DNA of 64,000 bases from Escherichia coli (GCF_036507355.1 NZ_AP027877.1); one strand, 5' to 3'; shown: positions 54,587 to 56,790, numbered from the stretch's first letter. Translations and numbers: made by a program. The notes: a model not told the origin generated them from the letters alone.

Positions 54587-54604
54587 TGAATCGCCACGGA
54601 TAAT

Positions 54605-55417
54605 CTAGACACTTCCGAGCCGTTGATAATACTGGTTTTCATATTCTGTCGGTGACATCTGATCGCTGGAACCATGCCGACGCTTACTGTTATAAAACAT
54701 TTCGATGTAATCAAAAATATCGCTGCGGGCTTCTTCCCGCGTTCCGTAGATCTTTTTCTTTATCCGTTCGCGTTTCAACAACTGGAAAAAGCTTTCTGCA
54801 ACCGCATTATCATGGCAGTTACCGCGACGGCTCATGCTGCCCTCCAGGCCGTGTGATTTCAGGAACGACTGCCACTCATGGCTTGTGTACTGACTGCCCT
54901 GATCCGAATGAACCAGCACCTGTTTTTGGGGATTACGGCGCCATACAGCCATCAGCAGTGCGTTCAGGACAATGTCCTTTGTCATCCGGGATTGCATGGA
55001 CCAGCCGATAATTTTGCGTGAGAACAGATCAACAACCACGGCAAGATACAGCCAGCCTTCGTGGGTCCTGATGTAGGTTATGTCCGTTACCCAACGCTTA
55101 TCCGGAGCATCCGGATTGAACTGTCGCTGGAGCCTGTTGGGCGACACGATACTGGCCTCGCCTTTACGTGCCCGCGGGCTCCGGTATCCGACCTGAGCCT
55201 TTATCCCGACACGTTTCATCAGTCGCCAGACTCTGTTCACTCCGCACTGTTGCCCGCTGTCCCGCAGATCCAGATGGATTTTGCGATAACCATAGACGCA
55301 TCCCGATTCCAGCCAGAACTGTTTAATCTGCCCTGTCAGCCTCAGGTCTGCCTGATGGCGTTGTGAATGCGGCTGCTGAAGCCAGGCGTAAAAACCACTG
55401 GGATGAACATCCAGCAC
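54605..55417 (-). CDS. IS3-family transposase OrfB (DDE integrase domain)
   Basis: 270-aa ORF with ..[33 protein letters not shown].. DDE core. Confidence 0.85.
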
Positions 55418-55473
55418 CCGACAGAGCAGGCGAACAGGCCAGCAACAGGTGTTGTCACGGATAAAGGCGTACC

Positions 55474-55758
55474 TCAGTCGGACAGCTTTGCGAAGTACGC
55501 CGCGGCTTTTTTTAATATGTCCCGTTCGTCGGTAACCCGCTTCAGCTCTTTCTGGAGACGGCGGATCTCGGCCTGAGCATCTGACTGTTCTTTATTAGCG
55601 GAAGAATCCGGACCGTACTTCTTTATCCAGGCGTAAAGGCTGTGGGTGGTGATATCGAGACGTGTTGCAACGCTGGCAACAGAATAACCGCGATCAACAA
55701 CCTGTTTGACTGCTTCAATTTTAAACTCTTCGGGATAACGCTTACCGCTCATGGGCAC
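55474..55758 (-). CDS. IS3-family transposase OrfA (HTH)
   Basis: 94-aa ORF MPMSGKRYPEEFKIEAVKQVVDRGYSVASVATRLD...ILKKAAAYFAK. Confidence 0.85.
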   Translation of the reverse strand: MPMSGKRYPEEFKIEAVKQVVDRGYSVASVATRLDITTHSLYAWIKKYGPDSSANKEQSDAQAEIRRLQKELKRVTDERDILKKAAAYFAKLSD

Positions 55759-55812
55759 CTCTCTTTAAGCCATCTTAAATGACTCTGAGGTGTCTGTTAA
55801 ACCCGTGGCGAT

Positions 55813-56790
55813 TCACTCTAATGCTTTTTGAGCAGCAAGTTCAAGTTCACTTTTTCCATGAAGTGCCAAAGACATATGGCATTCCGCTAGAAGGCAATAA
55901 CATTCTGTTTTTAGCGTCTGTATATCACTTTTATTTTGTAATCCATCAAATATAGTCATGGCCCTGTAAATGCTTTCAGGGGTGAACTCGTAAAGTTCTT
56001 TCTTTCCGGCTAACATTTCATCTGATAAATAATGATTCTTATATCCTTGGTCCTGCTTAGCTAATCTTACAGATCGTTCTGGTTTATGTACCGTTTGAAG
56101 GATATTATCTATAATAAATTGTGATGTATTATGTAGTTCATCAACAGGGAGATGATTACTGGCGATGAGGAAAAGGTTTTTAGCGTCGATCAACTCAATG
56201 TATAAAGTGTTCACTGCATTATTCTGGTTTATTCTTCCTGTAACGAAATAATCTGGCTTGAATCTGCTCAAGAATGAATTTTGAGATATGTGGTCATTAC
56301 AAAAATTTGTCGCAGCCATCGGATAGGTATAGAGACCATCGATTTTTTTATTTGAAATGATTTGTACTAATTCCTGATTAAGTATTAATGGATCCAGTGT
56401 ATTCAATGAAGTGGTGAAAGGGAATATAGCTATGGAATAGTCTGAAGTATTATCTTCATTAATTTTAGTTTTGAAAACCTGCCCGCTGAAACGATAACCT
56501 TTCCGGTAGATTGTTTCTATGCAGCGATCATAGCCAATTTTTTCAAAAATGCAGCGCAAAGAATAGATACATCTTGTCAGGGACTCGTCACTAACAATAA
56601 TATTTTTCCATACTGATTCGATGATCATATCTTTCAGTACAACATGACCAGCGGATTCAAGTAATACTATTAATACACCTAACTCTTTCGGTGGAATATA
56701 AACTTGCTCATTTCCTTGAGTAAGAATTCCATCTTCCGTGAGCGTTAATCCCTCAAGAAAATGATATGAGAATTTATTTTCTAAGTCCAT
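55813..56790 (-). pseudogene. ygeH: ETT2 HilA-like regulator YgeH, C-terminally truncated by the IS3-family element
   Basis: 325-aa ORF with OmpR/ToxR-type winged helix ([31 protein letters not shown]...YRKGYRF); stop codon is the IS terminal TGA; full-length about 458 aa as I recall. Confidence 0.6.

Follow-up and report, generated by a model that had tools for sequence, protein, structure and literature searches.

The window analysed here is a 64,000-nt stretch of an Escherichia coli chromosome (NZ_AP027877.1) in which an insertion sequence (IS) at 54587–55815 separates the remnant of an arsenic-resistance gene, arsH, from that of the ETT2 gene ygeH. Beyond the ygeH remnant lies the left arm of the ETT2 locus. 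In order, this arm comprises ygeG, encoding a TPR chaperone-like protein (57124–57615, minus strand; intact, 163 aa); a ygeF pseudogene (57880–58342, minus strand), which is frameshifted and matches in two pieces in different frames; yqeK (58772–59197, plus strand; intact, 141 aa), with an intact yqeL 3' of it (59233–59313); yqeJ (59346–59828, minus strand) and yqeI (59821–60630, minus strand), both intact; yqeH, encoding a LuxR-type regulator (60964–61596, minus strand; intact, 210 aa); and the intact permease gene yqeG (62056–63285, minus strand), which forms the left border of the locus. The left-arm proteins of the window showed 97–100% identity. The position of the locus, between yqeG and glyU/actS, is that of the ETT2 island.

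The core of ETT2 was sought in the window with 20 kb of the ETT2 core of strain XJ34 and with the ygeI–ygeQ interval of K-12. Neither yielded a match in the window by blastn or tblastx, and the window contains no type III secretion apparatus genes (eiv, epa, epr, etrA or eivF). The initial annotation had proposed that only the left arm of ETT2 is retained, and within the window this is the case. It had also placed ygeI through ygeQ between ygeH and glyU in K-12. This placement agrees with the K-12 sequence, in which the order is ygeH-ygeI-pbl-ygeK-ygeL-ygeN-ygeO-IS2-ygeP-ygeQ-glyU. In the window, none of ygeI–ygeQ is present and 16 kb of island DNA is found instead: the interval between glyU and ygeH (38413–55815) consists of two integrase-encoding islands and the IS, again as first annotated.

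The islands begin at glyU, a tRNA-Gly(CCC) gene identified by ARAGORN (38339–38412, plus strand). The last 23 nt of this gene (38390–38412) are repeated perfectly at 42585–42607 and constitute the att repeat of the islands. The two copies bound island 1 (38413–42607, plus strand; 4.2 kb), which carries a gene for a 543-aa integrase (38547–40178) and shares 99.6% identity with its counterpart beside ygeQ' in strain D72. Two sets of short tandem repeats occur in island 1 downstream of the integrase gene: three overlapping copies of a 13-nt unit (40180–40224) and three copies of an AT-rich unit of ∼48 nt (40586–40738). The second island, which carries arsenic-resistance (ars) genes, begins directly after the second att copy and extends to the IS (42608–54586, plus strand), such that the two islands form a tandem array at glyU. 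The order of island 1 followed by the ars island occurs in no complete genome of the collection.

The ars island encodes a P4-type integrase (42772–43998), ABC-three-component-type proteins (45207–48173), the arsRDABC cluster (48333–52637) and a GNAT protein (52672–53208). In relatives, the AT-rich region at 45207–48173 is annotated as encoding a DUF2326 protein, middle component 6 and an ABC-3C protein; it is adjoined by a gene for a 325-aa hypothetical protein (44154–45131). Between the GNAT gene and the arsH remnant is a 177-aa ORF, sigma70'/arsA' (53333–53866, minus strand), in which an internal deletion affecting arsA2 and arsD2 has joined an N-terminal sigma-70/ECF part to the C terminus of another ArsA. 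An identical product is widespread, occurring in 151 blocks of the public collection and in several genera-sized contigs. The window contains only two att copies and none distal to the ars island, which has therefore lost its distal end. The island is thus a shortened member of the tRNA-integrated islands. With its integrase and proximal att retained but the distal copy missing, it is expected to be fixed in the chromosome and unable to excise.

The element between the two gene remnants is a complete, 1229-bp IS3-family insertion sequence on the minus strand. Copies that are 100% identical over exactly positions 1–1229 are found on further chromosomes and plasmids of E. coli. Together with the inverted repeats, these copies set the ends of the IS at 54587 and 55815 to the base. 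The inverted repeats (54587–54624 and 55778–55815) are imperfect and of the form 5'-TG...CA-3' (TGAATCGCCACGG ... CCGTGGCGATTCA). They span 38 nt with 74% complementarity, the first 13 nt (TGAATCGCCACGG) being perfect. The element contains orfA (55474–55752, minus strand), with an HTH_Tnp_1 domain according to Pfam, and orfB, whose reading frame (minus strand) extends to 54605, lies in the −1 frame relative to orfA and specifies an rve DDE domain (Pfam). An A7G slippery site, TTAAAAAAAG, occurs near the end of orfA (55506–55513, minus strand), from which the −1 frame runs on into OrfB, as predicted for a −1 programmed frameshift. OrfB scored 338.7 bits against the NF033516 model, ‘IS3 family transposase’ (cut-off of 160), and RefSeq annotates the identical copies elsewhere as ‘IS3 family transposase’ with ‘programmed frameshift’, with no individual IS name. 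OrfB shares 42% identity with that of canonical IS3 and 25% with that of IS2. On this sequence comparison, the element is distinct from both. It is present once in the 64-kb window and is repeated in many genomes, in up to 21 places per genome.

On its right side, the IS truncates ygeH in phase and supplies its stop codon, as the initial annotation had stated. Homology to intact ygeH begins exactly at 55816, the first base past the IS, and the reading frame (55813–56790, minus strand; 325 aa) comprises codons 1–325 of the 458 of ygeH (55816–56790) followed by TGA (55813–55815, minus strand), the terminal triplet of the IS. As both IS ends begin with TGA, either orientation of the element would provide the same stop. 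The truncated product, YgeH', is identical to the 458-residue YgeH of strain XJ34 at 324 of 325 residues. It aligned to positions 1–325 of the 458 of the YgeH model NF008870 with a score of 766.8 bits, below the 800-bit cut-off. As a remnant of the HilA-family regulator YgeH, YgeH' retains the N-terminal OmpR/PhoB-type winged-helix DNA-binding domain (PF00486, residues 28–101) and lacks the C-terminal 133 residues (326–458), which include weak TPR-like matches. In intact ygeH, the CTC that abuts the IS in the window edges a small hairpin, AAAAGC-TCTAAT-GCTTTT (positions 19990–20020 of the XJ34 sequence; 55807–55833 in the window), a feature that may matter should the site be a hot spot.

On its left side, the IS abuts the 3' part of arsH (54043–54586, minus strand). 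The remnant matches positions 55–219 of the 219 of the TIGR02690 profile and lacks the promoter and the first ∼57 codons, including those for the stretch GSVRERSYS. Homology to the corresponding gene of isolate NZ_OZ197100.1 ends at 54584, and the bases CA (54585–54586) precede the IS. We considered whether these two bases might be filler DNA, but the loss of one T from arsH (...GGCTG(T)CA) is the more economical account, and in the simplest reading of the alignment arsH would extend to 54586 with one T deleted beside the junction (GGCTG-CA versus GGCTGTCA). A 223-aa ORF (54043–54714, minus strand) begins inside the IS, in a frame other than that of orfB, and crosses the inverted repeat in frame into arsH'. 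Any protein made from it would be missing the ∼57 N-terminal residues of ArsH, GSVRERSYS among them, and is probably inactive. The arsH gene itself appears to be dead.

The triplets that flank the IS differ, being GCA on the left and CTC on the right. Of six identical copies examined elsewhere, three are bordered by perfect 3-bp duplications (CTT, GCG and CGG), which chance alone would produce at 1/64 of copies. A 3-bp target-site duplication is therefore normal for this IS, and the copy in the window has none. A simple insertion is excluded by the missing duplication and, more decisively, by the identity of the opposite flank, which is the 3' part of arsH and not ygeH. The proposal in the initial annotation that the differing flanks reflect a deletion is accordingly borne out. 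The anatomy of the locus, both of its breakpoints, the missing duplication and the absence of the core from the window are matters of direct observation. As the IS joins segments that are far apart in relatives, it marks a deletion, and we have high confidence that it is the scar of one that joined arsH at about codon 58 to ygeH at codon 325.

The same anatomy could in principle have arisen if the IS had entered a pre-existing arsH'-ygeH' deletion joint by ordinary transposition. Nothing directly favours such an order of events, and it keeps a small probability only in that the other three of the six identical copies likewise lack duplications. Against it, the 3-bp duplication is absent at the joint, the IS would have had to land exactly on the earlier joint, and an IS-free arsH'-ygeH' joint was found in none of the 5,426 complete E. 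coli genomes. We therefore regard this order of events as extremely unlikely and interpret the IS as part of the deletion itself.

The deletion runs from inside the ars island at glyU (arsH, about codon 58) to inside ygeH (codon 325). Its size, route and functional effects are matters of inference, the size from relatives. The window breakpoints are 33.8 kb apart in NZ_OZ197100.1 and 3.9 kb apart in strain L26. The window has lost the start of arsH, the far portion of the ars island together with its outer att, the last part of ygeH, and both ygeI and pbl. The complete set of ETT2 apparatus genes (etrA/ygeK, epr, epa, eiv, eivF and the GH15/ygeQ gene) was most probably lost with them, which brings the total to ∼30–34 kb. 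NZ_OZ197100.1 carries the same variant of the ars island (99.86% identity over 12 kb), including the same internal sigma70'/arsA' deletion. Unlike that of the window, its island spans 22 kb up to a terminal att core, beyond which lie another small island and a complete ETT2. Among complete genomes, the best matches to the left arm were strain 48 (99.4%) and NZ_OZ197100.1 (99.0%), both of which have a full ETT2. Because the closest relatives of each flank carry the full ETT2, we judge a single large deletion to be likelier than a trim of 4 kb, and it is with moderate confidence that we attribute the loss of the core, ∼30–34 kb, to the IS-bounded deletion itself. The islands did not displace the core, since the same ars island and a full ETT2 coexist in NZ_OZ197100.1.

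The alternative is that the core was lost earlier in a separate deletion and that the IS event took only ∼4 kb, reaching from the 5' part of arsH, through arsR, a small number of island genes, pbl' and ygeI, into the 3' part of ygeH. An arrangement of the kind required exists. In strains L26, Combat11I9 and 23CRST011, a related glyU ars island without a distal att abuts a core-less ETT2 remnant, in the order glyU, ars island, pbl', ygeI, ygeH, and breakpoints of the L26 type are 3,925 bp apart. These strains differ from the window in having no annotated IS at the joint and in retaining arsH, arsR, ygeI and a full-length, frameshifted ygeH. Loss of the core is also common: two parts of ygeH, a 5' segment up to codon 325 and the 3'-terminal 402 nt, each occur in 3,543 of the 5,426 complete genomes, and eivA, which is single-copy and chromosomal wherever it is found, occurs in 1,308. 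Some 2,200 genomes (roughly 40%) therefore have ygeH without eivA and are ‘regulators only’ or degenerate. However, the L26 island and left arm are only 96% and 97.5% identical to those of the window, respectively, and L26 lacks the internal sigma70'/arsA' deletion common to the window and NZ_OZ197100.1. NZ_OZ197100.1 is a much closer match, and its ETT2 is complete. An earlier loss of the core is thus possible but rather doubtful.

Two routes would lead to the joint seen in the window. In the first, a copy of the IS in arsH would have undergone homologous recombination with another, in the same orientation, in ygeH. In the second, a single intramolecular transposition would have carried the element from one site into the other. 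Both give the same product, and sequence cannot separate them. A precursor with this IS at the arsH or the ygeH site, flanked by a duplication, was found in none of the 5,426 complete E. coli genomes, and JGI metagenomes likewise yielded no precursor. In the same genomes, neither junction was present in either orientation of the IS, and neither was present in JGI metagenome contigs. We also compared the target with the inverted repeat of the IS; they share only the 8-mer ATAATCTA, and the remainder does not align.

The ygeH breakpoint was nevertheless found in other assemblies. One protein record, BED21081.1 (locus tag VEE46_08490), has exactly the 325-residue sequence of YgeH', and the same product is encoded in the Logan assemblies of SRR32181686 and SRR17480487. 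The two Logan contigs are 99.95–100% identical to the window and end their match to ygeH at the same nucleotide. Past ygeH', each contains 29 nt of the IS (8976–9004 of contig L011 and 1921–1949 of contig L012). These 29 nt correspond to the orfB-distal end of the element (TGAATCGCCACGGATAATCTAG...), whereas the window has the orfA-proximal end at this position (55787–55815). That the contigs break 29 nt into the IS points to the element being a repeat in those strains.

These contigs bear on whether the joint in the window is genuine. Because the IS is present in up to 21 places in some genomes, the contig ends of arsH' and ygeH' could have been bridged wrongly through a multi-copy element, and both the break of the short-read contigs within the IS and the opposite IS end beside ygeH would fit such an artefact. 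By contrast, the window is unambiguous through both junctions: beyond the shared 13-nt terminus, the sequence is specific to each IS end. Moreover, the source is a finished 4.64-Mb chromosome, the Logan contigs independently confirm the ygeH breakpoint to the nucleotide, and a junction k-mer without read support cannot come from an assembler. An assembly artefact is therefore highly unlikely, and we take the IS-bounded joint to be real.

The opposite orientation of the element in the Logan contigs is not explained by homologous recombination, which, whether between direct or inverted copies, never changes the IS end that touches a flank. As recombination cannot swap the IS ends, each form must stem from its own event at the level of transposition, with CTC as the target in both cases. 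Use of the same target would mean either that the site is a hot spot or that the two forms are the deletion and inversion alternatives of one chemistry. A bolder proposal is that the CTC after ygeH codon 325 is a true hot spot, hit independently in both orientations, or the site of deletion and inversion outcomes of intramolecular transposition; that the IS repeatedly triggers the collapse of ETT2; and that YgeH(1–325) continues to regulate genes outside ETT2. We consider this proposal improbable. Exact-protein look-ups in the Logan samples returned no match for any of five further products predicted for the partner junction: the partial arsH' product of the window type, ArsH' from an internal start, the arsH' product expected with the IS flipped, the ORF of the ygeH 3' fragment expected from a simple insertion, and the arsH 5' fragment reading into the IS.

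ETT2 occurs in most E. coli and has undergone widespread attrition, with many isoforms and with IS transposases inside the cluster, according to two reviews (PMC11068852, PMC3977695) and a strain panel (PMC5422975). In avian pathogenic strains, a transposase insertion of ∼1.3 kb in ygeH has been described (PMC11068852), and strain THO-010 carries IS5 in ygeH. The window resembles the attrition isoforms in that the locus is adjacent to glyU, the apparatus is partly or totally lost and the regulators are retained. It differs in that the other end of the joint lies in a foreign arsenic island and not in ETT2 or backbone DNA. The allele is therefore new in its end points, one of which is in a foreign island, and this kind of ETT2 decay has long been documented.

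Two further known states are close to that of the window. The remnant in K-12 MG1655 (yqeG–ygeQ, b2845–b2863) shares with it the left arm from yqeG to ygeH, the ygeF pseudogene, an internal IS and the lack of an apparatus. By contrast, MG1655 keeps full-length ygeH, ygeI, pbl', ygeK', ygeL', ygeN', ygeO', IS2, ygeP' and ygeQ, and its IS is IS2, located between ygeO' and ygeP'. Strains D72, MB10 and A30 (horse) have an IS3-family element at the joint of an ETT2-core deletion, in the order ygeQ'-IS3-yqeH', and D72 and MB10 also have island 1 at glyU, as in the window. In these three strains, however, the element is canonical IS3 and the deletion extends to ygeH, ygeG, ygeF, yqeK, yqeJ, yqeI and part of yqeH.

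With respect to function, YgeH' would have no ETT2 apparatus genes left under it to regulate. The transcription of ygeH would now enter the IS co-directionally with the transposase genes: the two are co-oriented, and read-through from the ygeH promoter would therefore enter orfA. This promoter is silenced by H-NS (PMC4210603). A single event would have inactivated arsH, stripped the outer att from the ars island, which should fix the island in place, and removed a secretion system. The allele leaves the current understanding of ETT2 and of IS3-family elements unchanged. It is one more isoform of the decaying ETT2 locus, with its end points precisely located, and shows that such deletions can begin within an adjacent resistance island integrated at a tRNA gene. 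In practical terms, PCR typing of ETT2 based on ygeH would score such strains as positive even though only the regulators remain.

A second IS-bounded joint occurs on the other side of glyU. A 768-bp IS1 (36536–37303; flanks at 36535 and 37304) joins the end of the lysS–idi intergenic region, at the idi stop codon, to a position 197 bp upstream of actS/ygeR. Approximately 33 kb of the K-12 sequence (idi–xdhA, including xdh, ygeV–Y, ssnA and uacT) is therefore missing at this joint. Strains D72, MB10 and A30 have nested, IS1-bounded deletions with other end points.
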